In this document: positions 1 to 64,000 of the stretch, in pieces
Position numbering within the stretch: the stretch's first letter is position 1
Layout of the letters: each line of letters opens with the position of its first letter
Assembly: GCF_937906905.1 (NCBI RefSeq)
Contig: NZ_CALERY010000034.1
Span: 10,401 to 74,400, forward strand
DNA length: 64,000 nucleotides
Reading direction: 5' to 3'
DNA from: an uncultured Helicobacter sp.
GTDB taxonomy: Bacteria; Campylobacterota; Campylobacteria; Campylobacterales; Helicobacteraceae
Made by a program: the position numbers and the translations under genes
Notes under the pieces: generated by a model
Database searches by the model: none
The model's input: the letters and a program-made list of their open reading frames with translations, nothing else
What the model was told of the DNA's origin: nothing

Positions 1-140
1 GCGCGTATCACACCTTTTGCCATGCTTTTTATGCACGCTACCATTTTCTACTCCTTTAGAATTTCATATAAATCTGCAGGAGACATATCGTCAAATTTGC
101 TGGAAAATTAAATACCTGCTTGGTGCTAGATTCTAGCGCT

Positions 141-1082
141 TCAGTATGTCTCGCACCTAGAGTGTTCTAGCTTACAATCATTGGCATTGATGTCAAAATA
201 ATCTGTGTAAAACATCGTCGCGCTTTTGTCTTTGTGGCGCTCGATAAAGTCTTTTTCATTGCTCGAGAATGCCATGATACACCCACCTTGCTCGATGTAT
301 TCTTGAGCGAGTTGGGGATTCTTACTAATCGTGCTTGTATGCGTGGCGACCATAGGGATACGCAGAGCTTTAGCTAAAGCAATGTCGCTGATAGATAGCA
401 TGGGCTTTAGCCCCATTTGTTTAGCTTGGTAGTAGCCGCGCAGGGAGAAAACCTCGATGAGAATGCGCTGTGTAAAAGGCAGCTGCGCTTTAATCGCAGC
501 AAAATCATTGAGTTTATCTGTTACAAGATAGGCATGCGGATAGCTTTGAAAAATCTGCGTGATAGATTCTGCTACAAGCGGGGTTAGGAAGCCATGGATT
601 TTGGATTCTAGGATTTCTTGCTTGCTTGGTGCAGTGAGCGCCTCATCTCCTTGCACTTCTTTGCCAACTAGCGAGTAGAAGTGCTTATAATCATGCGCAG
701 CGAAAATCCCACCTGCATCATCGAGCATTAAGTCCAGCTCGATAAACGAAAATCCCTCTTGTAGGCTTTGGAGCAGGGCTTCCTTGGAATTTGTGTAAGT
801 GTAGGTTTGGGGCTGTCCTTGCGCGTTTTTCAAGATTGCACCACCAGCATGCGCGATGAAGTTACGATGTGGCAGCGTTGTGATAGCTGGATTATAGCGT
901 GGGTTGAACTCGCATTTCTCATCAGCAAGCTTATATGACACAGCAAGCGGATAGTAGTGCCTAAGCGACTTTACTAGTGAGAGCTTGAGCACAAATCTAT
1001 CAAAGCACACAGCCCCGATAGCCAAAACCACCAGCACAATGGCACCAATGATGAGCGATTGTTTAGCGACGAGTTTTTTCAT
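141..1082 (-). CDS. membrane-anchored glycerophosphodiester phosphodiesterase (GDPD)-like protein
   Basis: 313-aa ORF with an N-terminal TM helix. 'FIAHAGGA...FIELDLMLDDAGGIFAAHD' fits the GDPD / PI-PLC-X-like His...Glu-x-Asp...His-Asp pattern. Its start overlaps the end of the upstream sulfatase-like ORF by 20 nt, suggesting an operon. Confidence 0.55.
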   Translation of the reverse strand: MKKLVAKQSLIIGAIVLVVLAIGAVCFDRFVLKLSLVKSLRHYYPLAVSYKLADEKCEFNPRYNPAITTLPHRNFIAHAGGAILKNAQGQPQTYTYTNSKEALLQSLQEGFSFIELDLMLDDAGGIFAAHDYKHFYSLVGKEVQGDEALTAPSKQEILESKIHGFLTPLVAESITQIFQSYPHAYLVTDKLNDFAAIKAQLPFTQRILIEVFSLRGYYQAKQMGLKPMLSISDIALAKALRIPMVATHTSTISKNPQLAQEYIEQGGCIMAFSSNEKDFIERHKDKSATMFYTDYFDINANDCKLEHSRCETY

Positions 1083-2876
1083 AATTAACCTCCCAAAATG
1101 AGTTATAAAGTCGATTTCTCATGCCAAGCTCGGCATTTAGCGCGGATTTGGTATAGGTAGATTCTAGTAGCGTAGCGCCATAGAGTGGGTTGCGCCCTAG
1201 TCCAAAGGCGCGTGTCTCCACCCCGAGAGAATCTAGTATGAGCGGTGTGATGTCAAAATGACTCATCTGGCGTTTTTTGAGTGAGCTTTGATTGTATTTG
1301 GCGGTGAATTTGGGGTTGATGAAGAGATTGTAGATTGACCGCTTGCCAAAGGTGTCAAAAAATCCATCTCCCTTATGCGAGAGATGATCGCCCAGCAGGA
1401 TAATAGTAAGACTCTCGCCAAATTGCGCTTGGGCTTTGGCGATAAACTCTGCTAGCAGTCTATCTGCGCAAGTAAATGCCTCTTGATACGAGTCGCCTAG
1501 TCCTGGGCAAGCTTCTTTATCGACAAAGCCATTTGGGTGGTGGGTATCAATAGTAGAGACATAGAGCACAAAAGGCTCTGGCAGGGATTCTAGCTCATCT
1601 TTGGCAAGTGCCAGGAGCGCAGAATCCTTAAGCCCCCAGAAGCCTTGCAGCTCCTTTGGCAGTGGGTCTGGCACTTTGCCTTGCGCTTGCAAGGCTGGGA
1701 GATCAAGCACGGAAATCGCATGCGAGCCTAGAAAGTAGCGCATACCAGAGAAGCTAGAATCTAGCCCAGAGAGATAGCGCTGCGTATAGCCAAGCTCACT
1801 TAGCACATCGCTCACGCACACCGCAGAATCTAAAAAGTATTTATTCGCAAACGAATTCCCAGCTATTGGCATATCGAGTGGAATCCCGCAGAGATAGGAG
1901 ATCGTCCCAGCAATCGTCCAGCCAGTGCCGCTAACTTGCTCTAGCCCGCCTATGCCAGCAGTGTGGCTGAAATTTACATAGCTGCTAGCGAGGGTTGCGA
2001 GATTTGGCGTGATACTTAGTGCAGGGTTTAGTGTGGTATTGAGATTTTGGGGTGGATTTGAAGCTACGCTAGAGTGCGAAGTGTTCCCCCCCCCCCCGTT
2101 TTGGCGTGTGGGCGCACAGAAGCAATAGCGCTAGAATCTGTTGTAGTGATAAAGGTAGATTCTAGGGATTCTGCCAAGATGATAAGAAGATTTTGCTTGG
2201 GCTTTGCACCAGTATGGGAGCTGGCAAAAGAGCTGGGCTCTGGGGTAATGTAGTTTGACTCATAGAAGCTTGAAAATGGTGCGGCTTGCGATTTGATATA
2301 TTGAGTGATGTGGAGCTTATTATTAGCAACAGCACCCCCGATGACAATCGTAGCAAGTGGCAGTGCAAATGCCAGATACCGAGCAATAGTATAGCGAGCG
2401 CTCATGCGCTGCCAGAGAGTCAGGGCATAGGGCGTGAAAAGTGCGATAAGCATACTTGGAAACAGCACACGCTTCTCAAATGCCACAAAAAGCCAGAATC
2501 TATGTAGCTCCATAGCAATGGGAAGAAATAGTATCAAAAGCGGCACAAATGCCACACAAAATCCCACAAGCGCACTAAAATTACTGCGCAAAAATCCAGC
2601 AAAATATGGCAATGCACTCAAAAGCAACGCATTTACCACACTAGGCAATACCACATTTACAATAAATGAGCGCACGACCATAGAATCCATATCAAGCAGT
2701 GGGAATTGCAGGTGGAAGAGAATCTGTCCAAAATGCTGGATTTCAAAATTTAGCTCAAGCCAATAGCTGCTAAACAGCAAGAAAAAGCCTATCAAAAACA
2801 CCAGAAACACCGCACAAAGCTTGGCGAGAAATCGCGCATTAGCCTTATGCCTTGCTTGCTTTAGGGACTCTATCAT
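1063..2876 (-). pseudogene. phase-variable sulfatase-family membrane transferase (LTA-synthase / phosphoglycerol-transferase-like), currently frameshifted at a G12 tract
   Basis: ORF 2064..2876 is a polytopic membrane N-domain. ORF 1063..1872 is the sulfatase/alkaline-phosphatase-like domain ('LYVSTIDTHHPNGF', 'LLGDHLSH'). The frame of the 3' ORF stays open upstream through the homopolymer at 2086..2097. The two frames fuse if the tract is G13 or G10. Confidence 0.7.
2086..2097. repeat. homopolymeric tract C12 (G12 on the coding strand)
   Basis: Counted directly: 'gtgtt-cccccccccccc-gtttt'. It lies at the junction of the two sulfatase-gene halves. Confidence 0.95.
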
Positions 2877-2931
2877 CTCTACTCCTTGGGAAACTGCAAT
2901 GATACAATGAAAACCACAATTTGCTTCAAGT

Positions 2932-5900
2932 TTATTTCGCTACGCGCACAGCCTGCGCACTTGTGCGCGCGATAAAGTCGCTATCATACATGGCTTCGGC
3001 AAGCGCACCGCCTAGCACATATTCGCCCGTGAGTGTCGCGACACATTTGATATACACCACCTGTGATTTGCCAGAATCCACAAGCCCATTATCGAAGAAA
3101 AACATCACCCTATCGCGCAAGATATCCATATAATCCACGCGATCATTGGCTTTCATAAACGCCCTATCCCCTAGCGCCTCTTCCTTGTCCCTGCCGTTCT
3201 CTTGGCTATCGCTGCTTTGAGACTTGATTCTGGTGTTTTGGATTTCCCAGCCTGTTGGGATAATTTGGGTTAGTGCGAGATTTCTAGGCGATTTAGTCTG
3301 CGAAGTGTTTGTGATTTTTAGCTCGATGTAGAATTCATCGCCAAGCTTGATATTGCTAGGGTCAAGTGCCACTTCCTGCCCACTTTTGTCAATGGCAAAA
3401 ATCCGGCGCGATAGCTCTAGATTCTGCGATTTAGCAGGGATTGTGATTGGATTGACATCTGGCACACCTGTGCTAACTAGCGAGATATAGAGCTTGTCTT
3501 TAGCCTCCAGGGTATTTTTAGCATGAGGATCAAGCACAATGCTCATGCGCTTGTTTGTGGAGTATTCCTTGCCATTGAGGGTAAATCGCACGCCTTTGTC
3601 GCTAGAATCCGCACTCATGCTAAGTGCTAGCAGACTTGTGGCAATGTCTTGTGTGCCCAGCCAGCGCTCGTTTTCTAAAGTTTTGGCAATGGAGTGCAGC
3701 AGGGTAAGGTTTGGCGACTTATCGATGAGTGCGAGAAAATACGCACTCATGGCTTGGTTTGTCAATGCGCTACCATAGTAGTAATAGCGCGTATAGTAAT
3801 CCCACCTATCACTATAAGGCTTTTCATAGTGCTGCATATCTAGGAGATTTTCAGGCAGTTTGGCGCGGATTTCTTTAGCCACATCATCTAGCCCACTTAG
3901 CTTATAGCTCGCAGCAAGGCTTAGTTTCTCGCGCAAGGAGAGCTCTTTGAAGTGATAAGTATAAAGCTCATTCATCGCCGAGATATTTGGCGTGCCTTGG
4001 AGTGCTAGGAGAAACAGCGGGTATGCCTGCAGAGCCGGGGTAGAGCTAGATTGCACGCGTTTGGTGGCATAGGCGCTCCAGTTTTTGAGCACAGATTCTG
4101 GGACTTGATAGCCTTTTTGCTTGGCTAGGAGAAGAAAAAGCGCGGCATAGTCGCTACCATAGTCGCTAGTCTCATTAGAATCTATCCAGTAGCCAAACCC
4201 GCCATTCCCACGCTGGAATTTCACAATACGATTGATTGACCGCTGCACTCGCTCACGCACGATCTCTTCGCTCTGCTCTTTTGCGCCTTGGAGCCCTAGT
4301 AGTAGTGGCATAGTCGCAGAAACACTCTGCTCGATACAGCCATACATATAATGCAAGAGATACTCGACTTTGTCTTGATAGGAGAAAATCATCGATGGTG
4401 AGATGATGAGCTTTTGTGCGAGCGAGCCTTGGATATATTGCTGCTTGGCTTGGAGAGTCTTAGACTCTTTAGCATTGAGTGTGGAGAGCTCTTCGTCTGT
4501 TTGTGGTGGCAGAGGTGTGCTGATGTTTATGGCGTAGTGGTTGCTCTGTGTGATTGTTTGTTTTGCCACAGGAGCTTTTGCGCTATTTGTGCCACTCTTG
4601 GTAGAATCTACGCTAGATTCTGGCGATACTTCTACCTGGGCTTTCATGGTGATTGTGATATTGGCTTTGCCTATGGATTTTGGCGTGATAGCAAGGTATT
4701 GCATAAAGCGTTTGCGCTTGGGATCAAGGCTAGATTCTAGCTTTTTAACCGCGACATCGCCGCTTACTTGAATATCAACTTGACTTAGGCTTGCGCTATC
4801 TTGGGCGAGCACCTCCACAGGTGCGATGATTGTATCATCGCGCTTCATCTCCTCTGGGATATTGGAGTAGAGATTGGCGGGCTCGGCGATTGTTACATGA
4901 GATTCTGCATGTCCCACACTGCTCTCATCGCTTGCGATGAGCATGACACGCGCGCTGCCCACGAAGTTTGGCAGCTGATACTCTATAGTCGCTTTGCCGC
5001 TTTCATCGCTTACTCCGCTGGTGAAGTAGATGAGATTCTCGCGGCGCTTCTTGCTAAAATCTGCCGCCTGTCCCAGGCTCTCCTCATCTCCACCGATAAG
5101 CACACTTTGATGCACCACGCCAAATAGCCGCGCCATAAACTCGTCAAAATTATCATAGTGGATCGCTTCATCGTTGATTTTGCTATATAAGCCTTTGAGT
5201 GGGTTTGGCGTTTGGAAATTGATAATACGCAAAATCCCCTCATCAACCACCGCAAGCGTGTAAGCCATTTTGCGCTTTTTGGGGTTTTGGATTGTGATTT
5301 GGAGCTTGGAAGCTGGTTTTATGGATTCTGGTGCGATGATTTCAGGAGAGAGTGCTAGGGCTGGGTCTTGCACAGGGATACTAATCGTGCCAAAGCTTCG
5401 CTTGACTATCGCGGTTTTTCGCATATCTTGCTGTGTGTGCTTTTGCGATTTGTCAAAATCTTCGCCCGACTTATCTGGGTCTTTGGCTATGAGTGTCGCA
5501 CTTACATAGATGTTTGGCGCATATTCTTTTGTAAGCGGGATTTCATAGCTTGTTTGATTGCCAGAAATTTGGATCATCTCACTTTTTAGGATTGTATCGC
5601 CTTGGGTTAGCGTGATAATCGCCTTGCTAAAGCCTTTGGAGTTAAAGCGCACTATGGCTTTCTCGCCTGCTTCATAAGAAGATTTATCAAGCTCTAGGGG
5701 CAGCTGTGATGGGTTTGCCTTTATCGCAGCATCGCCATACGCATCTGCCACGAGCCAGACGATTTTAGGGGGATTGCTCCCATCATCTAGCTCGACAAAC
5801 ACAGAATCATAGTCCTCCACCAAGCTTGAAAGATCTTCGCGCAAGTTAAATGGCGCGCCCTTAGAAGTGATACTCCCCTCTTTTATAAGCGTGGTGTTAA

Positions 5901-8250
5901 TGTCGCTTTTGATTTTAGCATTGAAGTCTTTTTGCACATCATAGTCAAACCACCAGTAGCGATTGTTGCGGTAGATTTTGTAGCGGATTGATTTATCTGC
6001 GATTGGCTTGTCGGTAAATGGATTGAGCACGATGAGCGGAAGCTCAAGCGGAGCATGGAGTAAATCGACATAGTGCGGAATCTCGCCCACCCCGATAATA
6101 CTGCCTGTGCCAAAATACTGCACCGCAGCAGCGTTTGAGACAGGGTGTCCGGTGCTTTCAAGCACTTGCGCCCTAAGTGCCAGGCGCAAATGCTTATAGC
6201 TAGAATCTAGCTCGGCGAGATTAAAATTAAAGTGCGCTTTGCCACTTTCATCGAGCACACCATCAAAGCTTTTATCAAAGCGATAGGACTCGCTCTCACT
6301 CTGGGAGAAATCAAAGCCCTTATACGCCTTTGATTTGTAATCAAGCGGCGTGGCTTGGAGATTGAGCTTGTATTTTAGCCCTTGTGCGCTTGCCCCTGTG
6401 AGATACGCGCTTTGTATCGTCGCTTCTAGGTGCTTTTTGGCGTGGTCTAGGGATTTGGGCGCATCAATATCTACGCGGATTTTATTTGGCGTGATGTATT
6501 CGACTTGGAAGTTTTTGTAGAATTTCTCGCTTCCTATGCTAAATGCCGCGCGATAGCCCCCTGTGATGAAGCTTGTATCTGTGGCAAATGTATAGCTATA
6601 AAGCCCATAGCCTATGGGCTGGATAATCTGCTCGCTGATAATCTTGCTGCCACGCGGGTTAAAAATACTAAGCTTAATTGGTGCATTTTGTATCCGCTCA
6701 TCGCGCACAAGGACATTGAGCTGGATAGATTCCCCAGGATTGGCAATCCCCCTATCCGTGTAGGCAAACACCTTGCGTTTGCGCTTTTGCGCACCGCTTG
6801 TATCGCGCCCATCGTAAAATCTACTATCATAGTGAAGCCCTAGATAGCTGATCTCGCCGCCTTTGTCGCTAGATTCTGCGATTAAAATCGCAGGTTTTAG
6901 CGCAAAATCCCTAGAAGGCTCATTGTCCTTATCTTTGATGATTTGCCCGCCAAGTGCGGTGGATTTATAGGTGCTAAACTCCGCATAGCCGCCAGAATCT
7001 GTGCTCACAGATTCTATGAGTTTGTTTGAAGTGGAGTAGAGCGAGAGCTTTATGCCAGAGAGCGGCTCGCCCGTGGTGGAATCCAGCGCATAGGCGATGA
7101 GCTTATCCCCAGCCCTCTCTGCTACAAGCGCGACATTAGAGACGACAAGCAGTTTAATAGCACTTCTATATGCGTCTCCATTATCGTATTCTTCCCATTC
7201 ATTATCATTTGGGTAAATCTTATCCGCGCGCTTAGTGCGAAACTCCAGCACATACGCGCCTTGCTCGAGATCTTTGTCCAGCAGCTCACTTAGCACAAGC
7301 GCGGTTTGCACTTCATCTTTGCTAAGGTCAAAGGTAATTTCTTTCTCCCAGATTTTATCCATAGATGAGGTGTCAATATAGCTGCTATTTCTGGTGATAT
7401 ACTCGCGTATATTGCTATCACTGCGCAGATTCTCGGTGCTAAGCTTGTAGATAGCCAGTGTGCTTTTGCGGATATTGGTGCTTATCACACCGATTTTCAC
7501 ATCACGACTGCTAGCAAGCATACTGCCCTCTTGGGCAAACCGCAGGCTTGGGTAGAGACTTTTGCTTTGTAGCGTGATCTCCTCGCTTTCTATGGGGTGC
7601 TTGAATGTGAGTTTATAGGTTAGACCCGGTTCAAAATCCCCAGTAAGCGTGATTTTACTGCCCTGCACGAGTGCTTTTACCTGCGGCGCGTAGTTCCCAC
7701 TATATACGCGAATACTCCCCTGCGCCTTGGCAGAATCCAGCCCAATATCGCGATCGAGAAAAATCTCTATCGCCTTTTGCTTGCCATAGATTTTTGCATC
7801 AAGCACCTTAGCAGTATCGCCAGATTCTAGGGCGATGTTTGCGCTAGCTGTATCAAGCTTGATAAGCAGCTCTTTTTTGCCATTTGTCTTAGGAGTGTAA
7901 AGGAGATTCCACTCATGCTCACTTACTTGCTGGAGGCTAGCGAGCTTGCTATCCTTAGGCATAGGCGCAGAATCTATGGAGATTTTAGATTCTAGCTCGC
8001 TAGCACTTAGTGGCGTGTTGGTAAAGATTGGCAGCGAGATTTGCGTGCGATTCTCATCTTTGAGAGTGGTGAAAGTCGGCGTGCCAAACTCTGCGGCAAG
8101 CGCGTTTATCTGCGCTCTAGCAGAGCTTTTGGAGATTTGCACCCCAGCCGCAAGCGCAAGCGCGACAGCCACGATGAGTGCGAGCAGGACAAGGAGCTTT
8201 GACTTAGATAGCAGCGTAGGCTTGCTGGGCGTTTGAGCTGGATTTGACAT
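2932..8250 (-). CDS. bacterial alpha-2-macroglobulin family protein (thioester-containing, ECAM/YfhM-like)
   Basis: 1772-aa ORF with an N-terminal hydrophobic anchor. Thioester motif 'GCIEQ' sits in 'HYMYGCIEQSVSATMPLL'. Size and domain layout are typical of bacterial A2M. GGGGGAG SD lies upstream of the ATG at 8250. Confidence 0.9.
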   Translation of the reverse strand: MSNPAQTPSKPTLLSKSKLLVLLALIVAVALALAAGVQISKSSARAQINALAAEFGTPTFTTLKDENRTQISLPIFTNTPLSASELESKISIDSAPMPKDSKLASLQQVSEHEWNLLYTPKTNGKKELLIKLDTASANIALESGDTAKVLDAKIYGKQKAIEIFLDRDIGLDSAKAQGSIRVYSGNYAPQVKALVQGSKITLTGDFEPGLTYKLTFKHPIESEEITLQSKSLYPSLRFAQEGSMLASSRDVKIGVISTNIRKSTLAIYKLSTENLRSDSNIREYITRNSSYIDTSSMDKIWEKEITFDLSKDEVQTALVLSELLDKDLEQGAYVLEFRTKRADKIYPNDNEWEEYDNGDAYRSAIKLLVVSNVALVAERAGDKLIAYALDSTTGEPLSGIKLSLYSTSNKLIESVSTDSGGYAEFSTYKSTALGGQIIKDKDNEPSRDFALKPAILIAESSDKGGEISYLGLHYDSRFYDGRDTSGAQKRKRKVFAYTDRGIANPGESIQLNVLVRDERIQNAPIKLSIFNPRGSKIISEQIIQPIGYGLYSYTFATDTSFITGGYRAAFSIGSEKFYKNFQVEYITPNKIRVDIDAPKSLDHAKKHLEATIQSAYLTGASAQGLKYKLNLQATPLDYKSKAYKGFDFSQSESESYRFDKSFDGVLDESGKAHFNFNLAELDSSYKHLRLALRAQVLESTGHPVSNAAAVQYFGTGSIIGVGEIPHYVDLLHAPLELPLIVLNPFTDKPIADKSIRYKIYRNNRYWWFDYDVQKDFNAKIKSDINTTLIKEGSITSKGAPFNLREDLSSLVEDYDSVFVELDDGSNPPKIVWLVADAYGDAAIKANPSQLPLELDKSSYEAGEKAIVRFNSKGFSKAIITLTQGDTILKSEMIQISGNQTSYEIPLTKEYAPNIYVSATLIAKDPDKSGEDFDKSQKHTQQDMRKTAIVKRSFGTISIPVQDPALALSPEIIAPESIKPASKLQITIQNPKKRKMAYTLAVVDEGILRIINFQTPNPLKGLYSKINDEAIHYDNFDEFMARLFGVVHQSVLIGGDEESLGQAADFSKKRRENLIYFTSGVSDESGKATIEYQLPNFVGSARVMLIASDESSVGHAESHVTIAEPANLYSNIPEEMKRDDTIIAPVEVLAQDSASLSQVDIQVSGDVAVKKLESSLDPKRKRFMQYLAITPKSIGKANITITMKAQVEVSPESSVDSTKSGTNSAKAPVAKQTITQSNHYAINISTPLPPQTDEELSTLNAKESKTLQAKQQYIQGSLAQKLIISPSMIFSYQDKVEYLLHYMYGCIEQSVSATMPLLLGLQGAKEQSEEIVRERVQRSINRIVKFQRGNGGFGYWIDSNETSDYGSDYAALFLLLAKQKGYQVPESVLKNWSAYATKRVQSSSTPALQAYPLFLLALQGTPNISAMNELYTYHFKELSLREKLSLAASYKLSGLDDVAKEIRAKLPENLLDMQHYEKPYSDRWDYYTRYYYYGSALTNQAMSAYFLALIDKSPNLTLLHSIAKTLENERWLGTQDIATSLLALSMSADSSDKGVRFTLNGKEYSTNKRMSIVLDPHAKNTLEAKDKLYISLVSTGVPDVNPITIPAKSQNLELSRRIFAIDKSGQEVALDPSNIKLGDEFYIELKITNTSQTKSPRNLALTQIIPTGWEIQNTRIKSQSSDSQENGRDKEEALGDRAFMKANDRVDYMDILRDRVMFFFDNGLVDSGKSQVVYIKCVATLTGEYVLGGALAEAMYDSDFIARTSAQAVRVAK

Positions 8251-8289
8251 GACTCCCCCTGTGGTAAAGTTTTAGCAGAGATTGTAGCA

Positions 8290-8302
8290 TTTTTTTTTTT
8301 TT
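8290..8302. repeat. homopolymeric T13 tract between divergent promoters
   Basis: Counted directly. It is flanked by TACAAT -10-like hexamers on both strands: revcomp of 8281..8286 facing the A2M gene, and 8321..8326 facing pbpC. Confidence 0.9.
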
Positions 8303-8368
8303 GATTTTTGAGAAATATACTACAATACACGCAAAATCCACAGGACACAAGCCACATAAAGCACACGC

Positions 8369-18258: not shown

Positions 18259-19725
18259 TTAGCTGGATTTGCGTAGGAGTAGCGCGCATTCTTTGTGGCT
18301 GGTGTGAGGGAACTGATCAAAAAGCGCGAAATGCTCAATGACATGGCTTTGGCACAATATGCGCAAGTCGGCTTCTAGACTTGTTGGGTTGCATGAGATG
18401 TAGATAATGTAGGGGAAGCTTGCTAGGAAGTCAAGCATGGCTTCATCGCCTATACCGCTTCTTGGCGGATCGACAAGCACATGCGAGAATCTAAATTGCT
18501 CAAGCTCCACCCCACGCAAGCGGAAAAACTCCCGCTGCCTGCGCAATGCACTTATGGTCTCTGCTCCGCTAAGGCGTGCGGAAGTGATGTTTGTGATATT
18601 GTTGCGGTGGGCGTTGTGTGCGATGAGTGCATGTGCGGATTTGACGACTTCGGTTACTAGCACTTTGTCAAAGCACTCTGCCAAAGCGATGGAGAAATTA
18701 CCATCTCCACCATACATCTCAAGCAGATCTTCGCGCGTATGGGCGTGGATTTTGCGCTTGACAAAGGAGAGCATGCAGGGATTCATATAGGCATTTGGCT
18801 GGCAGAATCGCCCCTCCTGGCGCAAGTAGGTGTAGGGTTTATCAAGCATAAGCACATCGCAAATCATATCCCTGGTATCAAGTGTGGATTCTCCTTGGTT
18901 TGGGGGCTTGCGCATAGCTGCGCCGGAGTCCATAGAATCTAGGGTGCTAGATTCTGGCACGCTAGATTCTAGGAAGTGAGATTTGGCGGAGGTGGATTCT
19001 GGCGGGGTTGAAGAGAAAATGTGCTTTTGATTTTTGCTTCTGGCGATGAGGGTTAGGGCTTGGATTGTGGCGTGTGGCTGGTGCGGGGGATTTGCTAGTG
19101 GGGGAGGGCAATTTGTGTGGAGGGCTTCGCGCAGGGTTTCAAGCAGGTTGTTTGTAGCGTGGCAGAAGCTAGAATCCAAGGGTTTATGATAGATAAGTGT
19201 GATGATGACATCGCTGTGCTGTGCGTGATCATGCGCGATTGTATAGAGCGTGGTAGTAGAATCTAGTGCTGTTTTCTTTATGGATTGTGGCGGGGTTGCG
19301 GATTTTACCGCAGAGTCTAGCGTGCCAAATCGAGAGCCTAGCACCTCTATGGCATAGATCTTGTGGGAGAGAAGTGGGCTAGATTCTAGCAGGGGCATGA
19401 GCTTTTCTAAGGTGCGTTGGAGGGCTGGGAGGAGAATTGGGCAATTTGAGAGTTTGACCCGAGAGTTATGTCCTCGAGCGCTCATAGAGAGTGAGAGCTT
19501 GGGTGCAGAATCTGGCTTGTAGTCTTTATAAACGCGGAACTCTCCCCTGGCACGATAGCCAGAATCTGGCGAAGCATATATGCTAAGGTGAGGGAGAGTG
19601 TAGGCGCGTAGCAGGGTGCGAAGTGCGGTGGCTTTTGTGGTGAGCGCACTTTTGCTATGTGGGCTGGCGTCTGTGCTTTGAGCAGGATCACACCCGCCAC
19701 ATATCCCTCTAACCTCGCATTTCAT
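18259..19725 (-). CDS. TrmA/RlmD-family RNA (uracil-C5)-methyltransferase with a low-complexity insertion
   Basis: The C-terminal SAM-MTase has 'VLVDPPRSG', 'YISCNP' and 'FDQFPHTSHKECALLL'. A central segment of roughly 80 aa rich in P/S/LES/LDS is coded by a motif cluster around 18930..19110. Confidence 0.7.
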   Translation of the reverse strand: MKCEVRGICGGCDPAQSTDASPHSKSALTTKATALRTLLRAYTLPHLSIYASPDSGYRARGEFRVYKDYKPDSAPKLSLSMSARGHNSRVKLSNCPILLPALQRTLEKLMPLLESSPLLSHKIYAIEVLGSRFGTLDSAVKSATPPQSIKKTALDSTTTLYTIAHDHAQHSDVIITLIYHKPLDSSFCHATNNLLETLREALHTNCPPPLANPPHQPHATIQALTLIARSKNQKHIFSSTPPESTSAKSHFLESSVPESSTLDSMDSGAAMRKPPNQGESTLDTRDMICDVLMLDKPYTYLRQEGRFCQPNAYMNPCMLSFVKRKIHAHTREDLLEMYGGDGNFSIALAECFDKVLVTEVVKSAHALIAHNAHRNNITNITSARLSGAETISALRRQREFFRLRGVELEQFRFSHVLVDPPRSGIGDEAMLDFLASFPYIIYISCNPTSLEADLRILCQSHVIEHFALFDQFPHTSHKECALLLRKSS

Positions 19726-23258: not shown

Positions 23259-23392
23259 CGCGCAACTCTCCCAAGATTCTGTAATGATTTGTTTTGTGGG
23301 GTTTAGAAGCGCGTATTATACACAACTTCTGCGAGTTTGCGCGATTTTGTTATAATGCGCGCTTCACAAATGTGGCGATTTAAGGAGTGTGT

Positions 23393-24529: not shown

Positions 24530-24564
24530 GAGTCTAGATTCTAGGGCGATTCTAGGGAAGCTTG

Positions 24565-27043: not shown

Positions 27044-27120
27044 TGGCGGAGCGGACGGGGCTCGAACCCGCGACCCCCTGCGTGACAGGCAGGTATTCTA
27101 ACCAGCTGAACTACCGCTCC
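27044..27120 (-). tRNA. tRNA-Asp (GUC)
   Basis: The reverse complement folds as a cloverleaf: GGAGCGGTAGTTCAGCTGGTTAGAATACCTGCCTGTCACGCAGGGGGTCGCGGGTTCGAGCCCCGTCCGCTCCGCCA. Anticodon loop is CTGTCAC. Confidence 0.95.
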
Positions 27121-27157
27121 AAAGGAGATATGTAGAATCTGCAAAAGCAAATATAAA

Positions 27158-27233
27158 TGGTGGTCGCTACAAGGCTCGAACTTGTGACATCCACCTTGTA
27201 AGGGTGGCGCTCTACCAACTGAGCTAAGCGACC
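27158..27233 (-). tRNA. tRNA-Val (UAC)
   Basis: Reverse complement GGTCGCTTAGCTCAGTTGGTAGAGCGCCACCCTTACAAGGTGG...GCGACCACCA. Anticodon loop is CTTACAA. Confidence 0.95.
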
Positions 27234-27266
27234 GAAAAAACGCAAGAACAAAAAGAAGAGAAAAAG

Positions 27267-27341: not shown

Positions 27342-27354
27342 ACTACTTAATCAA

Positions 27355-35088: not shown

Positions 35089-36777
35089 GTGGATACCAAA
35101 ACGCTTTTTGAACGCATAACTAAAATCTATAATAACCTAAGTGGTAAGCAAAAAATCGTCATCACCGCAACGATTATCCTGCTTATTGGGTTTTTTGTAT
35201 TTTTGCTTGTTTTTTCTAATAAGCAGGTGCAAAATTCCTATGGTGTGCTGTTTGAGGGCATGGATTCCTCGGATAATGCCCTAATTCTTCAGTATTTAAA
35301 AGACAACCAAATCCCTTACAGAATCCCGCGTAGTGATGTGATAGAAATCCCCAGTGAGCGCGTGGCAGAAGAGCGTATCGCGCTAGCAGCTCAAGGCATA
35401 CCTAAGACCTCTAAAGTGGGCTTTGAGGTTTTTGATATCAATAATATCGCCGAGACGGATTTCACTCAGCAAGTCAAATTCTTGCGCGCCACGGAAGGCG
35501 AGCTTACGCGCACAATAGAAGCTTTGGAGCCGATTTTTAAAGCAAATGTGCAGATTGCCAACCCTAAAGAATCGCTCTTTGTCTCCACAAGTATCCCGCC
35601 AACAGCGGCTGTTATGGTGCAGTTAAAGCCTGGCAGTGCGCTTTCATCATTTCAAATTACCGGGATTAAAAATCTCGTTTCTGCTGCTATCCCAAAGCTC
35701 ACGCCAGAGAATGTAAAAATTGTTGATGGCAATGGGATTCCGCTTGGAGAGGAAAATGATCTTGCCGGAATCAATGAAGTGCTTAAGCAGCGCCAGGCAA
35801 TCGTCCATGCCGATGAGCAAAAGCTCGCAGATAATATTGTGCGCCTGCTCTCTCCGCGTGCTGGAGGTTCCAACAAAGTTGTTGCAATCGTCAATCTCCA
35901 ATACGACTGGAATCAGCAAGAATCTGTCAAGCAGACATTCGATCCTGCCCAAGTTGTCCCGCGCTCAACAAAAGATTTCGAGCAGGAGAAGCAGGGTCCA
36001 GGCGAGAAGCGGATTGGTGGGATTCCGGGTGTGGAGAGTAATGTCGGTCCTGTGCAGAATCTAGATTCTGATAATGGGCAAATCAAAGAACGCACGACAG
36101 AAAATATCGCTAATAACGAGATTGGTACTGAAACAATCACAACTAAGCATGCTATGGGTAAGCCGCTGCGCCTCACGGCTTCCGTGCTTGTTAATGGTGG
36201 GCACAAGTTGGTGGTGGGTGATGATGGACAAGAGAGTTCAGAATATGTGCCTTTTACACCAGAGGAGCTTGCCAAGCTTGAAAATCTTGTCAAAAATGCC
36301 ATAGGCTTTGATGAAAAGCGCGGGGATTCTGTAACTGTGTCTGACTGGGATTTCTCCAAAGGCGAAGCGATCAAAGTGCCAAAGACATTTGTCGAGAGAG
36401 CCACAAGCTTCATGATGCAGTATGTCCCACTGCTTAAATATGTCATCATCGCCATTATCATCTTCATCTTTTACAAAAAAGTCATCGCGCCATTTGCAGA
36501 GCGTATGCTTGAAGTCCAAGATGCAGAAGACGATAAGATTGAATCGCTCTTTGAGGTTGATGATGACGATGATGAAGCGAGCTCGCGCTTTGGCGAGCTT
36601 CGCAAACGAGTTGAAGAGCAGCTTGGCATTAGTGGGGGTGGATTTAGTGAAGATGAGGTGAAATACGAAGTGCTGCTTGAAAAAATCAAAGCTGCCATTC
36701 AGGAGAAACCAGAGGAAATCGCCTCTCTATTCCAAAAGCTTATCCACGATGAAATCGGCTTAGAGAAGTCTAGCTAG
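35089..36777 (+). CDS. fliF: flagellar M-ring protein FliF
   Basis: 562 aa with a GTG start. YscJ/FliF family pattern, two TM segments, acidic C-terminus. Followed by fliG. Confidence 0.9.
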   Translation: MDTKTLFERITKIYNNLSGKQKIVITATIILLIGFFVFLLVFSNKQVQNSYGVLFEGMDSSDNALILQYLKDNQIPYRIPRSDVIEIPSERVAEERIALAAQGIPKTSKVGFEVFDINNIAETDFTQQVKFLRATEGELTRTIEALEPIFKANVQIANPKESLFVSTSIPPTAAVMVQLKPGSALSSFQITGIKNLVSAAIPKLTPENVKIVDGNGIPLGEENDLAGINEVLKQRQAIVHADEQKLADNIVRLLSPRAGGSNKVVAIVNLQYDWNQQESVKQTFDPAQVVPRSTKDFEQEKQGPGEKRIGGIPGVESNVGPVQNLDSDNGQIKERTTENIANNEIGTETITTKHAMGKPLRLTASVLVNGGHKLVVGDDGQESSEYVPFTPEELAKLENLVKNAIGFDEKRGDSVTVSDWDFSKGEAIKVPKTFVERATSFMMQYVPLLKYVIIAIIIFIFYKKVIAPFAERMLEVQDAEDDKIESLFEVDDDDDEASSRFGELRKRVEEQLGISGGGFSEDEVKYEVLLEKIKAAIQEKPEEIASLFQKLIHDEIGLEKSS

Positions 36778-36786
36778 GAGGATTTG

Positions 36787-38602: not shown

Positions 38603-38610
38603 GGCGTTGT

Positions 38611-43079: not shown

Positions 43080-44168
43080 GTGATTTGCGTGGTGCAGGTG
43101 GTGATAGATGGGCGTGAATGTGAGCTGGTAGATTCTGGGGTGCGGCTTGATGAGTGTGTATCGCGCGCACTTGGAAGCTCACGAAGCCAAGCCCAGGAGT
43201 TCATCAAGCGTCATGGCGTAATGCTCAATGGCAAGCACACGCAAAAGTGTGGAATCAAGCTCGCGCAAGGGAGCGAGATTTGTATCAGCCTGCTAGAATC
43301 TAGTGCCCCAGAAACCAAAGCCCTAGACTTCGCCCCGTTAGATTCTGGGGCAAACATGCTTATGGAATTTTCCCAAGAAGCATGTTTTGAAATCTGTCCA
43401 AAGATCTCTCCAGAAATCCTGTATGAAGATGGCGAATTGCTTATCCTCAATAAGCCCCCACATCTCGTTGTCCATGGTGCGCCAAGCGTGAAAGAACCCA
43501 CGCTTGTGGATTGGCTTCAGGCGCGTGGCACATTGCTTTCTAGCCTTGGCGGGGAGCAGCGCGCAGGGATTGTGCATAGGCTCGATAAACAGACCAGCGG
43601 GGCAATCGCCATTGCTAAAACAAACCACACACATGCAAACCTAAGCCAGCAGCTAAAGGAGCGTAGCATGGGGCGCTACTATCTCGCTCTTATCGATGCT
43701 CCACTAAGAGAGCCGCGTGTTATCACTTGCCAGCTTGATCGCCACCCAAATAACCGCCTCAAAATGGCAAATGTCGATAATATGCGCAGGGCTGGATCAG
43801 GTGCGCGATTTTCTAAAAGCACTTTTCTCCCACTGCTTTGCACAGATTCTATCTCACTTGTGGCTATCAAGCTCCACACCGGGCGCACGCACCAAATCCG
43901 CGCGCATTTAGAGAGTATCAATCGCCATATTCTAGGCGATAGTCTTTATGGCTATAAAGGCGAAGGCTTTGAGCGTGTCATGCTACATGCCTATCTGCTC
44001 TATCTCAATCACCCTGCCACAGGCGAGAAGCTTGCATTTTGCGCGAGTATTTTTACAGATATGCTACAATGCGCGCACAGAATTTTTGGCGCAAAGGAAT
44101 TTGATGAAGCAATCCAGCAAGAGACTATTTTGCGGGCTTTTTCTCAGTTTGACTCTACTGGCTCTTAG
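43080..44168 (+). CDS. rluD: RluA/RluD-family pseudouridine synthase
   Basis: 362 aa. S4-like N-domain, catalytic 'HRLDKQTSG', 'GRTHQIRAH'. Confidence 0.85.
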   Translation: MICVVQVVIDGRECELVDSGVRLDECVSRALGSSRSQAQEFIKRHGVMLNGKHTQKCGIKLAQGSEICISLLESSAPETKALDFAPLDSGANMLMEFSQEACFEICPKISPEILYEDGELLILNKPPHLVVHGAPSVKEPTLVDWLQARGTLLSSLGGEQRAGIVHRLDKQTSGAIAIAKTNHTHANLSQQLKERSMGRYYLALIDAPLREPRVITCQLDRHPNNRLKMANVDNMRRAGSGARFSKSTFLPLLCTDSISLVAIKLHTGRTHQIRAHLESINRHILGDSLYGYKGEGFERVMLHAYLLYLNHPATGEKLAFCASIFTDMLQCAHRIFGAKEFDEAIQQETILRAFSQFDSTGS

Positions 44169-45378: not shown

Positions 45379-46901
45379 TGCCACATTTCATCGCCAAACT
45401 TCCAGCCAAGATCACTATGCCAGATTCTGGTTCTACTCTTGATTTCAAGCTAGAATCTGGTGCATTTAAGCTCCCAAGTATCCGCTCCCCACATATCGCC
45501 CTTATCGCTATGCCCTACACCTACCAGAGCTCTGCTAGATTTTGTTTTCTACATGAGATCACGCGCGAGTGTGATGTGCTGCTAAAATGCGTAAAATCCC
45601 TGCGCCCCACACCAATAGGTATAGCCAAAGATGCGCTCTCTCGCCTAAGCGCACACTATGAGGTGCTACAGGATAATCTCTCCCTAAGCTCGTCAAAGCA
45701 GCAGGTGAGCAGTGCGTTTTTGCTTGGAGAGAGGGAGATTTTGGATCTTGTGGCGCGAGAGGCTAGTGCTTTGGATTTTGGTCAATCCGTAGAACCTAAG
45801 GCACGCTTTGATTCTACTATCCTAGAAATTGGCTTTGGCAGTGGTAGGCATATCCTTCACTTAGCTAGGCAAAATCCCAATGCTCTCGTGCTAGGGCTAG
45901 AGATCCATACGCCCTCCATTGAGCAGGTGCTACGCCAGATAGAGATTCTAGGACTAGAGAATCTCTATCTCTCTTGCCTTGATGCGCGTGTATTTCTCTC
46001 ATGTGCGCCAAGCCATAGCCTGCGCGAGATATATATTCACTTTCCAGTGCCTTGGAATAAAGCCAAGCACCGCCGTGTGCTTAATGGCAAGCTTTTGCAA
46101 GAAGCGTTGCGCGTGCTGGATTTGGCTGGTATGCTGGAGTTTCGCACAGATGACAGGGAATATTTCAACGATGTGCTCGAAGAGGCAAACGCGCTAGAAT
46201 CTACTGCGCCTAAATCCTTTTGCGTGCGCCATAGTATCAATGAAAGCCAAGCGATTACAAGTAAATATGAAGCACGCTGGCTGCGCCAGAGCAAGGATAT
46301 TTATACTATCATCGTGCGACCAGATTCTAGGGGCAATGCTAGCGGAGATTCTAGCAAGGGGTTTGAGCAAGATTCTAGTGCAGATGTGATTGTGGATTCT
46401 CCCACCACACTAGAATCTAGTGCGCAAAATTTTGCGTTTAGTTTTGATGAAAAATTGGTAAAATCCCTTTTGGCAAAGGTGCTTGAAGCGGAGTCCTCGG
46501 CAGATGGATTTGTGAGGCTTTCGCGCATAGCGGATTGGCTTTGTGCGCAAAAGTTTGTGCTAGATTCTGGTGATTTGGATTTTGGCAAGCTGGATTTTGG
46601 TTTGAGTGTTACCAAAGATTCTGGCACAGAATCCGCACTGGAAGCTAAGGCAGGTTTAAAGCCAGAATCTAGTGCGCGTGGTTTTTTGCGTATTGTTGAT
46701 ATGTATGCTTCAAGCACTGCGCGCAGATTTGCGCTGCTGGTGAGTTTTGGGGATTTTGCCTATCCGTGTAGCCGCCTTGTGCTTTTTGCAGAATCCGGGC
46801 AGGGCTGCTATCTCCCAGAGCCCCCTATACCCACGCAGCTAAATTACAAAGCCCATGCGTTGTTCGTGCGTATTTTAACCCAAGTTTTGGAGCGACTATG
46901 A
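45378..46901 (+). CDS. trmB: tRNA (guanine-N7)-methyltransferase TrmB with N- and C-terminal extensions
   Basis: Core 'ILEIGFGSGRHILHLARQNP...LGLEIH...IHFPVPW.K..H...R'. The C-terminal roughly 200 aa are rich in DS/ES/LDS low complexity. Confidence 0.75.
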   Translation: MPHFIAKLPAKITMPDSGSTLDFKLESGAFKLPSIRSPHIALIAMPYTYQSSARFCFLHEITRECDVLLKCVKSLRPTPIGIAKDALSRLSAHYEVLQDNLSLSSSKQQVSSAFLLGEREILDLVAREASALDFGQSVEPKARFDSTILEIGFGSGRHILHLARQNPNALVLGLEIHTPSIEQVLRQIEILGLENLYLSCLDARVFLSCAPSHSLREIYIHFPVPWNKAKHRRVLNGKLLQEALRVLDLAGMLEFRTDDREYFNDVLEEANALESTAPKSFCVRHSINESQAITSKYEARWLRQSKDIYTIIVRPDSRGNASGDSSKGFEQDSSADVIVDSPTTLESSAQNFAFSFDEKLVKSLLAKVLEAESSADGFVRLSRIADWLCAQKFVLDSGDLDFGKLDFGLSVTKDSGTESALEAKAGLKPESSARGFLRIVDMYASSTARRFALLVSFGDFAYPCSRLVLFAESGQGCYLPEPPIPTQLNYKAHALFVRILTQVLERL

Positions 46902-52867: not shown

Positions 52868-52891
52868 CTAGAATCTAGTTTGAGATTCTAG
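52868..52891. terminator. hairpin made of two inverted copies of the abundant motif, between convergent genes
   Basis: ctagaatct (52868..52876), loop agtttg, agattctag (52883..52891). The stem is 9 bp and perfect. No U-run follows, so terminator function is uncertain. Confidence 0.3.
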
Positions 52892-52973: not shown

Positions 52974-53663
52974 CTACCTAAATGGCTTATAAAATGCGTG
53001 CGATGGAGTCGTGGCGAGAGCGAGCATTTCTCTATCGCCTTTGCTATCGCCATAGACATAGATTTCTGTATATGTGTCTAAAACATAGTGCGCGCGGATT
53101 CTTATGGCTTTTTGTGCGCCATAGCAGTTTGGCGTGGCAAAATCTCCACTTAATATCCCCCCACTCATCGCATTTTCTCCAGAATTTGGCGCATTAGTGC
53201 TGGATTGTCGCACACTAGAATCTAGGCTCTTAGAATCTAGCCCATTAGATTCTGGCAGGACTACTTCTAGTTGTGTGCCAATACACTCCATGCCAAGCCT
53301 TTGACATAGCGGCGCAAGGTATTCCTCGAAGCTCGCGCTTACTAGCACTACTTTGTCTCCGCGTTGTTTGTGCCACTCTAGGCGATCTAGGGCGGATTCT
53401 CTTAGCATGGATTCTAGCACGCTTGTGAAGCGCTCGCAGTATCCTATAAACTCCGCATGCTCCATTCCAGCAAAAAAATATCGCATGAGCGCTTGCTTGG
53501 CGGCAGTATTGCTAATAAGCCCTAGTATGTATCCTACTAGAATCCAGCAGCGCGAGAGTAGCCCGCGATAGAGTCGCCCACGCCCATGCACAAATGCCAC
53601 AAATGCAAAGAGACTATCGCGCCGAGTCAAGGTGCCATCAAAATCGAAAAACGCTATATTCAT
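52974..53663 (-). CDS. HAD-IB family hydrolase (phosphoserine-phosphatase-like)
   Basis: 229 aa. 'IAFFDFDGTLT', 'VLVSAS', 'YGDSKGDREML'. Contains a motif-coded insertion 'LPESNGLDSKSLDSSVRQSS'. Confidence 0.7.
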   Translation of the reverse strand: MNIAFFDFDGTLTRRDSLFAFVAFVHGRGRLYRGLLSRCWILVGYILGLISNTAAKQALMRYFFAGMEHAEFIGYCERFTSVLESMLRESALDRLEWHKQRGDKVVLVSASFEEYLAPLCQRLGMECIGTQLEVVLPESNGLDSKSLDSSVRQSSTNAPNSGENAMSGGILSGDFATPNCYGAQKAIRIRAHYVLDTYTEIYVYGDSKGDREMLALATTPSHAFYKPFR

Positions 53664-63010: not shown

Positions 63011-63313
63011 ATGTTTGATATGAATAATTTGCAAAATATGCTTGGCGATATGCAAAAAAACATTAAAGAGCTAGAGGAAAAATCCAAAGAGAGTGTATTC
63101 ACCGCCAAAAGTGGTGGCGGGCTTTTGAGCGTGAGTGTTAATGGTGCAGGCGAGGTGGTAGATATCAATATTGATGATTCTTTGCTAGATGATAAAGATG
63201 CTCTCCAGATTTTGCTCATTTCCGCGCTTAATGAGGCATATAAAAATATGGAGAATAACAAAAAATCGCTAGCACTAAATATGCTAGGTGGGCTTAATCC
63301 TTTTGGCTCTTGA
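63011..63313 (+). CDS. ybaB: YbaB/EbfC-family nucleoid-associated protein
   Basis: 100 aa. 'MQKNIKELEEK....F.AKSGGGLLSVSVNGAGEVVDINID' pattern. Confidence 0.85.
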   Translation: MFDMNNLQNMLGDMQKNIKELEEKSKESVFTAKSGGGLLSVSVNGAGEVVDINIDDSLLDDKDALQILLISALNEAYKNMENNKKSLALNMLGGLNPFGS

Positions 63314-63452
63314 GTTTTTGGCTAAAATTTCGTATTTGCTTGGTAAGGGTGCGATTTGATGTGGCTTTCTCATAAATAAGTGAATTATAATAATACTTTA
63401 AGCATTTTTTTCTATAATTCCCAGAATCCACTTAAAAATGAAAGGAGCTACA

Positions 63453-63947
63453 ATGCTATCAAAAGAGGTTATCGCGCGTCTAAACGACCAAGTCGCTAAG
63501 GAAATGTTCGCTTCAAATTTGTATTTGAGTATGAGCTCTTGGTGCTATACGCACCGCTTCGATGGGGCTGGGGCGTTTTTGTTCGAGCACGCAGGGCAGG
63601 AGAGTGAGCACGCAAAAAGGCTTATCACCTACCTAAATGAGACAGACTCTAATCTCAAGCTACAAGCGATCAAAGAGCCAGAATCTAGCTTTGCAAGCTT
63701 GCTTGATGTTTTTACAAAAACTTATGAGCACGAGGTTGGTATCACGCAGTCTATCAATGAGCTTGTGGATTTTACGCTATCGCATAAGGATTTTTCTACT
63801 TTCAACTTCTTGCAATGGTATGTCGCCGAGCAGCACGAAGAAGAAGCACTATTCCGCGGTATTGTGGATAAAATCAAGCTTGTAGGCGATAGTGGCAATA
63901 GTCTCTATCTTGTCGATCAATACATTAAAACTCTGCTTGGCAAATAG
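63453..63947 (+). CDS. pfr: non-haem bacterial ferritin
   Basis: From ATG 63453 (SD AAAGGAG upstream). 'MLSKEVIARLNDQV.KEM.ASNLY..MSSWCY...DGAG.FLF.HA.E..EHAK' is nearly collinear with H. pylori Pfr (recalled from memory). Confidence 0.9.
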   Translation: MLSKEVIARLNDQVAKEMFASNLYLSMSSWCYTHRFDGAGAFLFEHAGQESEHAKRLITYLNETDSNLKLQAIKEPESSFASLLDVFTKTYEHEVGITQSINELVDFTLSHKDFSTFNFLQWYVAEQHEEEALFRGIVDKIKLVGDSGNSLYLVDQYIKTLLGK

Positions 63948-64000
63948 GCTTGGCAGGCTGGTCTCCGCGTATTTGGGCGGGGGCTAAACCCTAGAATTTA

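Follow-up and report, generated by a model that had tools for sequence, protein, structure and literature searches.

What maintains a short DNA word that recurs more than two hundred times, in genes and spacers alike, within 64 kb of a Helicobacter chromosome? The question is raised by a stretch of 64,000 nucleotides from an uncultured Helicobacter sp. (contig NZ_CALERY010000034.1, positions 10,401 to 74,400; the whole stretch is called the window below). A first-pass annotation, made from the sequence alone, had drawn attention in it to the heptamer AGAWTCT, often extended to CTAGAWTCTAG. Hyper-abundant words selected at the DNA level are known from very few lineages, namely the uptake signal sequence (USS) of Pasteurellaceae, the DNA uptake sequence (DUS) of Neisseriaceae and HIP1 (highly iterated palindrome 1) of cyanobacteria, and such words are the main natural handle on how transforming bacteria tell their own DNA from foreign DNA. 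Here we describe the Helicobacter word as an oriented unit, YAGAATCY, which is maintained by a force on the DNA itself and which may, tentatively, be a tag of self DNA in natural transformation.

Abundance of AGAWTCT in the window

All counts cover the full 64 kb, and the sum of AGAATCT and AGATTCT on the plus strand serves as the count for both strands. The exact number of AGAWTCT copies is 153 (75 AGAATCT and 78 AGATTCT), a density of 2.4 strict copies per kb. One hundred dinucleotide-preserving shuffles of the window gave 11.47 ± 3.07 copies with a maximum of 22, a 13-fold excess for the observed sequence, and an order-2 Markov model for both strands predicts 11.7 copies (z = 41); AGAWTCT is the top over-represented 7-mer in the window. 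Both backgrounds confirm the over-representation claimed in the first-pass annotation, and its counts by eye of about 31 cores in positions 1-10,000 and about 6 in 35,089-40,473 agree with the exact figures of 31 and 6. The 11-mer CTAGAWTCTAG occurs 12 times (starts in Table 1), and all five of the examples cited earlier are among these copies. The tetranucleotide CTAG, which had been described as one that many bacteria avoid, is instead over-represented 1.5-fold in this genome. Like a HIP-type word, AGAWTCT is short, exceeds expectation by at least an order of magnitude and occurs in genes as well as in spacers.

The word as an oriented unit

Every GAWTC site was oriented so that its centre base reads A, and the bases flanking the resulting GAATC were tabulated (4 x 4). 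Among the 295 GAATC sites, 243 are preceded by A, and the base 3' of AGAATC is T in 153, C in 68, A in 14 and G in 8. The mirror forms GGAATCT/AGATTCC are rare, with a total of 8 against 68 AGAATCC, an 8.5-fold asymmetry of which the general avoidance of GGAA (0.52x) covers at most a factor of about 2. The spacer copies have a pyrimidine at -1 in 26 of 27 cases and are mostly followed by A or G. The asymmetry of the flanks thus defines an oriented unit, 5'-(C)YAGAATCY(A)-3', of which AGAWTCT and the 11-mer flanked by CTAG are the spellings with the most symmetry. The same context table rejects a true palindrome, so that the word, called palindromic at first, is only pseudo-palindromic.

Copies of AGAATCY are divided evenly between the strands, with 111 on the plus and 110 on the minus strand, and the balance holds in each half of the window (51 vs 53 in 1-32,000 and 60 vs 57 in 32,001-64,000), even though the GC skew is steadily positive in the second half. 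A polar element of replication or transcription, like Chi or the FtsK-orienting polar sequences (KOPS) or acting at the RNA level, is rejected because there is no strand skew and both gene orientations are equal; in the codon phase that holds most copies, sense and antisense placements number 44 vs 54 for the strict word and 23 vs 26 for the C form. Open reading frames (ORFs; gene coordinates are longest-ORF approximations) contain 194 of the 221 copies (88%), and the remaining 27 lie in spacers totalling 7.4 kb, where their density of 3.7 per kb equals or exceeds that of genes.

Information content is limited to positions -2 to +9 (about 9-11 bp), the flanks being uninformative beyond 2 bases, and the word is therefore not part of a larger repeat. 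A tandem-repeat search around the copies returned only local spacings of 12-24 bp. Elements of the repetitive extragenic palindromic (REP), miniature inverted-repeat transposable element (MITE) or Correia type are rejected on the grounds that flank information is lacking, that most copies are intragenic and that no repeat family surrounds them. The word is thus neither a REP/MITE-type repeat, nor a polar Chi/KOPS motif, nor, as set out next, an avoided target of restriction-modification (R-M).

Relation to GANTC methylation sites

The word embeds GAWTC, a subset of the GANTC site of HinfI/HpyAIV R-M systems and CcrM, as the first-pass annotation had pointed out, and YAGAATCY takes up 75% of the GAWTC sites in the window. 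Outside AGAATCY, GAWTC numbers 74 vs 128 expected. Avoidance of GANTC outside the word, suspected at first, is not supported by GASTC, which reaches about 0.92 of its expected number; enrichment is confined to the extended context and does not extend to GANTC as such.

The word could be the target of an R-M or epigenetic methyltransferase (of the GANTC/GAWTC class or specific for AGAATCY), with dense methylated sites isolating the clade genetically or regulating genes. Its share of the GAWTC sites speaks for such a role, as do the strong R-M footprints that GGCC, GTAC, GGATG, TCNGA and CTNAG leave elsewhere in the window by their near absence. In H. pylori, an active GANTC R-M system keeps heterologous DNA from being integrated (PMC4917963). 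R-M words are, however, normally avoided, as the other R-M-type words are here, whereas this one is the top 7-mer of the window; moreover, the largely intragenic copies are spread uniformly along gene length (KS p = 0.81), unlike sites of promoter-level regulation. We regard an R-M or epigenetic target as improbable.

Selection on DNA and its cost to proteins

A different origin would lie in the proteins, if frequent Leu-Asp/Glu-Ser, codon usage or codon-pair bias produced the word. Three quarters (75%) of the intragenic copies do occupy a single phase, xxA-GAW-TCT, and the dipeptides DS and ES are over-represented 1.89- and 1.42-fold. Synonymous shuffling within each ORF, which preserves protein sequence and codon usage, nevertheless yields 24.0 ± 3.9 AGAWTCT (maximum 34), whereas 131 are observed in ORFs (5.5x). 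The excess extends to all three codon phases (10 vs 1.9, 23 vs 12 and 98 vs 10.2, observed vs synonymous null) and to the spacers. GAW-TCT encodes 130 of the 280 [DE]-S dipeptides although TCT accounts for only 20% of Ser codons, the ratio of TCT to TCC being 46:23 after GAA and 84:5 after GAT, and the synonymous mirror spellings xxG GAA TCT / xxA GAT TCC are depleted in the main phase (1 vs 6.0 expected). Loci of H. cholecystus, H. brantae and Ca. H. avistercoris show no enrichment. Codon-usage, dipeptide and codon-pair explanations are rejected by the shuffling, the phase counts and the mirror-word depletion, and an artefact of translation has next to no chance of being the cause.

The force that maintains the word acts on the DNA itself, not on proteins. 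Selection at the DNA level rather than codon or amino-acid preference had been claimed from the outset, and the shuffle, the three phases, the spacers and the conservation of synonymous sites described below all agree with it. An equal excess of synonymous L-[DE]-S spellings, or a loss of enrichment after background correction, had been named as findings that would count against the claim, and neither appeared when the comparison was made. Proteins bear a cost. The word lies mostly in its cheapest phase, xxA-GAW-TCY, so that Leu-Asp/Glu-Ser is inflated four- to six-fold: LDS occurs 47 times vs 8.4 expected (5.6x) and LES 36 times vs 9.6 expected (3.8x). The 11-mer within genes had been held to be readable only as L-[DE]-S-[SR], and all nine intragenic 11-mers indeed translate as L-[DE]-S-S.

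Conservation, turnover and dialects

Conservation was measured against control 7-mers of the same codon phase. Between the loci of H. canis (L001) and a metagenome-assembled genome (MAG) from sheep (L008), which are 85% identical, 80-87% of the word 7-mers are identical vs 41-42% of the controls (p = 1e-4 to 1e-5), and between the window and six conspecific strains the figures are 96-100% vs about 80% (p 0.013-0.11 per strain). At third-codon positions, identity is 90% in the word vs 76% in controls for L001 vs L008 (p = 7e-4), and 99% vs 92.6% for the window vs L081 (p = 0.0095). Synonymous positions within the word are thus kept above background between genomes. An earlier within-species test without phase matching (73.5% vs 68.6%, no difference) is superseded by these comparisons; a first cross-species look that had suggested high turnover was dominated by genomes 31-37% diverged, while sites are conserved at 10-19% divergence.

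Polarisation with an outgroup gave gains and losses of 8:6 and 10:5, whereas under neutrality, to judge from an enumeration of every single-base change in the window, 9.7 copies would be destroyed for each one created. Recombination mosaics, with alleles shared among L082, L083 and L002, partly confound the parsimony; despite this blur the balance departs strongly from neutrality. At 10 orthologous sites the H. canis-like strains L082 and L083, and partly H. zhangjianzhongii (L002), have AGAATCC where L001, L008 and L085 have AGAATCT, with no site reversed, and AGAATCC outnumbers AGAATCT 42:29 in this sub-lineage. The switch from T to C is a directional dialect shift of one sub-lineage. L082/L083 and L002 also share whole diverged alleles over short stretches, which points to recombination mosaics between named species. 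Taken with the counts above, the force on the word offsets an approximately ten-fold mutational decay, constrains synonymous sites and alters protein sequences.

A balance of this kind might arise without any function. Helicobacter is not known to possess MutHL mismatch repair and has many methyltransferases, some with Vsr-like partners, and a model of biased repair was reportedly proposed by Elhai for HIP1. The Helicobacter word could accordingly be a functionless by-product of sequence-specific biased repair or conversion, in which a very-short-patch-type or methyl-directed mismatch activity coupled to an (A)GAATC methyltransferase would correct near-matches towards the word in heteroduplex or damaged DNA. 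Besides that genomic background, the near-parity of gains and losses fits such an activity, and the one-way T-to-C switch could reflect a changed repair specificity. One-off neighbours are mostly depleted (CGAATCT 0.27, AGCATCT 0.22, AGGATCT 0.26 and AGAAACT 0.34 of expectation), and the strict AGAATC core with a looser outer base resembles the 1-nt deviation pattern described for HIP1 (PMC4390886). The C-to-T deamination neighbours AGAATTT (1.18) and AGATTTT (3.5) are not depleted, however, so that the footprint is not that of classical Vsr; in its asymmetry the word differs from the targets of most type II methyltransferases, which are palindromic; and for HIP1 the conservation analysis spoke against a resupply of copies through biased repair (PMC5861425), site conservation of a like kind being found here. 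Biased repair is in our estimation unlikely, though it comes second among the explanations.

Placement among genes

Per-gene density of the word varies about 20-fold. The highest values, about 10 per kb, belong to TrmB (15 copies, 9.8 per kb), ORF 42277-43077, the HAD-IB hydrolase gene (7 copies, 10 per kb) and ORF 60575-62593, and the lowest, 0.56 per kb, to the repeat-rich ORF 11407-14970, which has no family match. Of the four densest genes, two lack a family match or have just a weak partial one, and in TrmB a C-terminal extension goes beyond the family model. Judged by gene annotation and per-gene density only, copies look dense in poorly characterised or extended genes and few in several well-conserved housekeeping genes.

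These densities bear on a further possibility, that an abundant protein of the chromosome (nucleoid-associated, condensin-loading or replication-linked) binds the word, with selection on the number and spacing of sites. The even spread, the lack of strand polarity and the equal use of genes and spacers would suit such a protein, the partial dyad symmetry of YAGAWTCTR would suit a dimeric binder, and the sites are conserved between genomes. We know of no Helicobacter nucleoid protein with such specificity, however; the range of densities between genes appears to follow protein constraint rather than position, and the strong half-site asymmetry (68 vs 8) is unusual for a dimer site. For HIP1, periodicity led to a role of this kind being proposed (PMC5861425). 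We consider an architectural site less likely again than biased repair.

Distribution among Helicobacter genomes

The window derives from a species of the Helicobacter canis clade, a dog-associated lineage. Its housekeeping genes (Pgp6/Pgp3-type peptidases, flagellar genes, hydrogenase) place it in Helicobacter. In comparison with the H. canis type strain, LpxC shows 97% identity, while the DNA is only 88% identical with short synteny. Conspecific strains, all metagenome assemblies and one of them a 1.9-Mb contig, share about 95-96% overall nucleotide identity with it, and 97-98% in the longest aligned blocks.

Related genomes were sampled as 10-21-kb loci around lpxC, the species being those with an LpxC matching the search peptides, and the distribution given here is that within this sample. 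Strict copies per kb amount to 2.25 in H. canis (L001), 1.72 in H. zhangjianzhongii (L002), 3.14 in Helicobacter sp. CLO-3 (L003), 3.22 in a further MAG (L004), 2.47 in the sheep MAG (L008), 1.39 and 1.38 in the H. canis-like strains L082 and L083, and 1.80 and 2.95 in L084 and L085. H. pametensis has 1.07, and H. cholecystus, H. brantae, Ca. H. avistercoris, Arcobacteraceae and others have 0.1-0.6. AGAATC is the top 6-mer, with the same asymmetry, in 7 of 7 clade loci (L001, L002, L003, L004, L008, L082 and L085). Among the Helicobacter species sampled, the word thus appears specific to the H. canis clade. Extrapolation gives a total of roughly 6,000-7,000 copies per 1.9-Mb genome.

The GAATC contexts of the H. 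pametensis locus (L009, n = 101) are AGAATCT 22, GGAATCA 18 and GGAATCT 15, a weak and different bias that may have nothing to do with the word or may be a remote variant of it. Literature searches, including full text, turned up neither the word itself nor any HIP-like word of Helicobacter or methylome of H. canis, in line with the earlier impression that the motif is undescribed. A scan of viral contigs for triple-motif clusters returned only unrelated phage and giant-virus tandem repeats and no phage of the clade, and was uninformative.

A putative self-DNA tag for natural transformation

The explanation ranked first is that the word is a methylation-linked tag of self DNA for natural transformation which spreads by drive, a reading that we hold as a possibility rather than a probability. 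After it follow, in decreasing order, biased repair, the site of an architectural protein, an R-M or epigenetic target and the protein or codon artefact. Of the roles listed by the first-pass annotation (uptake-signal-like, protein-binding or methylation-linked), the evidence narrows the choice and decides on no single one. The self-DNA tag stands first because the profile of the word in orientation, strand equality, frame bias, tripeptides, gene-to-gene density, close pairs and dialects corresponds to that of USS/DUS (PMC2817400); the word also resembles HIP1, whose sites are likewise conserved (PMC5861425).

In the proposed mechanism, a sequence-specific protein of the transformation pathway would read the word at uptake or at a post-uptake recombination step, probably in methylated form through the embedded GAATC, a GANTC-class site for N6-methyladenine (m6A). 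Tagged fragments would be preferentially taken up or recombined among members of the clade, and because of this preference the tag would spread by molecular drive, as for USS and DUS in Pasteurellaceae and Neisseriaceae. The T-to-C dialect would then be a drift in the specificity of the reader. With more reserve still, we suggest that YAGAATCY may be the first sequence-specific signal of self-DNA recognition in Helicobacter, an uptake or recombination tag read, probably methylated, by the competence system based on ComB type IV secretion, which would have evolved independently of USS/DUS and in parallel to HIP1.

Precedents exist for a link between methylated words and transformation. Methylated HIP1 raises transformation more than 100-fold (bioRxiv 10.1101/2024.09.10.611283), and HIP1 abundance correlates with DNA-uptake genes (bioRxiv 10.64898/2026.06.24.733823). 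C. jejuni imports only RAATTY-methylated DNA (PMC10046745). The GANTC R-M system of H. pylori limits the integration of heterologous (non-homologous) DNA and leaves homeologous imports unaffected (PMC4917963).

Several points weigh against a self-DNA tag. With 7-8 bp, the specific core falls short of the length of known DUS/USS, and neither the window nor the related loci sampled contain a DNA methyltransferase or a candidate reader gene. Helicobacter, H. pylori included, imports DNA through the ComB type IV secretion system and not through the type IV pilus machinery of the USS/DUS type, and to our knowledge no uptake specificity is known in the genus. With GASTC near expectation, this genome gives no separate indication of a GANTC system. 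Conservation, the gain/loss balance and the dialects are equally expected under biased repair or a chromosomal binding site. H. pylori, finally, imports lambda DNA without sequence specificity (PMC10046745); it is the one Helicobacter that has been studied well.

Comparison with known words

The closest parallels lie in HIP1 and in USS/DUS; the word would seem to work like them and yet belongs to neither. HIP1 (GCGATCGC) is 15- to 300-fold over-represented, with up to more than one copy per gene (PMC5861425, PMC4390886). Both HIP1 and the Helicobacter word are hyper-abundant within and between genes and restricted to particular lineages, some of which have variant words; both show site conservation beyond synonymous expectation (PMC5861425) and embed a methyltransferase-type core (GATC/CGATCG in HIP1, GANTC in the Helicobacter word), and in both the outermost position is the loosest, for HIP1 according to PMC4390886. 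They differ in sequence, base composition and phylum, and AGAATCY is oriented, with mirror variants excluded, instead of a true palindrome of the HIP type.

USS and DUS resemble the word in being oriented and non-palindromic, in occurring about once or more per kb with strands equal, in the occasional inverted pairs in spacers and in lineage dialects. Frame bias and inflated tripeptides are common to both (for USS in proteomes see Findlay & Redfield 2009, PMC2817400), and in both cases copies seem to crowd in weakly conserved genes and to be few where a gene has no homologues, as far as per-gene density goes here (PMC2817400). The Helicobacter core is shorter than the 9-12 bp of USS/DUS, its density is higher (3.5 per kb), and the import machinery differs as stated above. 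RAATTY, the target of CtsM in C. jejuni, likewise comes from a naturally transformable member of the Campylobacterota and is a short A/T-centred word with an adenine-methylase-type target, a precedent in the phylum for uptake that depends on a methylated motif (PMC10046745). It is a palindromic 6-mer, unlike the oriented AGAATCY. The Helicobacter word also differs from RAATTY in its abundance, inasmuch as we know of no report of RAATTY hyper-enrichment.

In view of the word, one may ask whether uptake or recombination is specific in a genus assumed to be without such specificity. If the word is a self-DNA tag, strains of the H. canis clade should prefer methylated, YAGAATCY-bearing DNA, and frequent transformation would generally give rise to hyper-abundant signature words, irrespective of how the DNA is imported. 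Should the cause be biased repair or an architectural protein instead, that activity, too, would be one not yet described in Campylobacterota. Enterohepatic helicobacters that resist genetic work could be transformed more efficiently with the help of the word, which could also serve as a compositional marker for binning and for the detection of foreign DNA in these genomes. Its effect on Leu-Asp/Glu-Ser also means that a drive at the DNA level reshapes the proteins of a pathogen-related lineage.

Close pairs and local clusters

The features located in the window are collected in Table 1. The first-pass annotation had also stated that copies often occur as inverted pairs that would form hairpins. 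Close pairs number 19 vs 10.5 expected, and 14 of the 19 are inverted, a modest excess; with only 14 close inverted pairs among the 152 gaps between successive strict copies, "often" was an overstatement. Three of the four inverted pairs it cited were found (52870/52883, 18934/18949 and 6994/7009), while the fourth is 4603/4615 and not 4609-4627. Only one inverted pair falls in a convergent spacer, that at 52868..52889, which on the plus strand folds no better than shuffles (z = -0.7) and on which no T-tract terminator was called. A hairpin or terminator function appears unlikely on these grounds, and hairpin-forming pairs are a minor by-product.

Table 1. Positions of the word family, its 11-mer form and its local clusters in the window
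Feature	Position	Location	Remarks
Dispersed AGAATCY family, 221 copies (153 AGAWTCT + 68 AGAATCC/GGATTCT)	1..64000	both strands	3.45 per kb
11-mer CTAGATTCTAG	126..136	intergenic	
11-mer	1754..1764	ORF 1063-1872 (-)	read LDSS
Inverted pair (4603/4615)	4603..4621	alpha-2-macroglobulin gene	12-bp spacing
11-mer	4730..4740	alpha-2-macroglobulin gene 2932-8250 (-)	read LESS
11-mer	6200..6210	alpha-2-macroglobulin gene 2932-8250 (-)	read LDSS
Inverted pair (6994/7009)	6994..7015	alpha-2-macroglobulin gene	15-bp spacing
Three copies (18934, 18949, 18964)	18934..18972	TrmA-like gene	15-bp spacing; last copy is the 11-mer at 18962
11-mer	19379..19389	TrmA-like gene	read LESS
11-mer	24534..24544	35-bp spacer between convergent genes fcl and ORF 24565-25395	
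11-mer	31340..31350	rseP	read LDSS
Two abutting copies, AGAATCTAGATTCT	36056..36069	fliF	
11-mer	43293..43303	RluA-family gene	read LESS
Three direct copies (46322, 46346, 46370) + 11-mer 46410	46322..46420	low-complexity C-terminal extension of TrmB	24-bp spacing
Inverted pair, 11-mer 52868 (core 52870) + copy 52883	52868..52889	convergent-gene spacer	9-bp stem
Three copies, first the 11-mer 53215	53215..53253	HAD-IB hydrolase gene	15-bp spacing

The two genes named in the first-pass annotation were correctly identified, 2932-8250 as alpha-2-macroglobulin and 18259-19725 as a TrmA-like RNA methyltransferase. The cluster at 18934..18972 probably sits in a lineage-specific insertion of the latter, and its RNA folds with -22.6 kcal/mol (z = -6). 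Three housekeeping enzymes of the window are much longer than their family models: the TrmA-like protein (18259-19725) has 488 amino acids vs 352, TrmB (45378-46901) 507 vs 396 and Fcl (23387-24529) 380 vs 308. In the TrmA-like protein and TrmB, the presumed extra segment is of low complexity and packed with the word, as DS/ES repeats at 15- or 24-bp spacing.

Other features of the window

An ordinary tRNA cluster lies at 27044-27430 on the minus strand (Asp-GTC, Val-TAC, Glu-TTC and Lys-TTT), with a copy of the word at 27134 in the spacer between tRNA-Asp and tRNA-Val. Several words are nearly absent in a manner typical of restriction avoidance, namely GGCC 5-mers (0.02-0.05 of expectation), GTACA (0.02) and GGATG/CATCC (0.04); TCNGA (0.12), CTNAG (0.12) and GCATC (0.28) are also depleted, as are CAATTG, AGATCT and GATC contexts (0.2-0.5).

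A G13 homopolymer (11314-11326) is located about 80 bp upstream of ORF 11407-14970 (plus strand; 1,187 amino acids), in which a 213-bp unit is repeated in tandem (3.1 copies, 13364-14026), together with repeats of 21 bp. The counterpart in a conspecific strain has 1,328 amino acids; about 1 kb of the gene can be aligned with that strain's locus (88% identity), in inverted orientation relative to the syntenic blocks on either side. This ORF is a candidate for a phase-variable, repeat-rich, possibly acquired surface protein. A C12 homopolymer (2086-2097) lies near the 3' end of ORF 2064-2876, and this ORF and ORF 1063-1872, both on the minus strand, match consecutive parts (profile 86-178 and 234-456) of a phosphoglycerol-transferase-like protein, which looks like one gene split by a frameshift at a phase-variable tract. 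Over the segment 21876-24268, conspecific strains are 93-94% identical vs 97-98% on either side, and in the adjoining 21425-21876 (the 5' part of minC) they fail to align by megablast, suggesting that minC, the M23 peptidase gene and fcl are probably covered by an imported, recombined segment.

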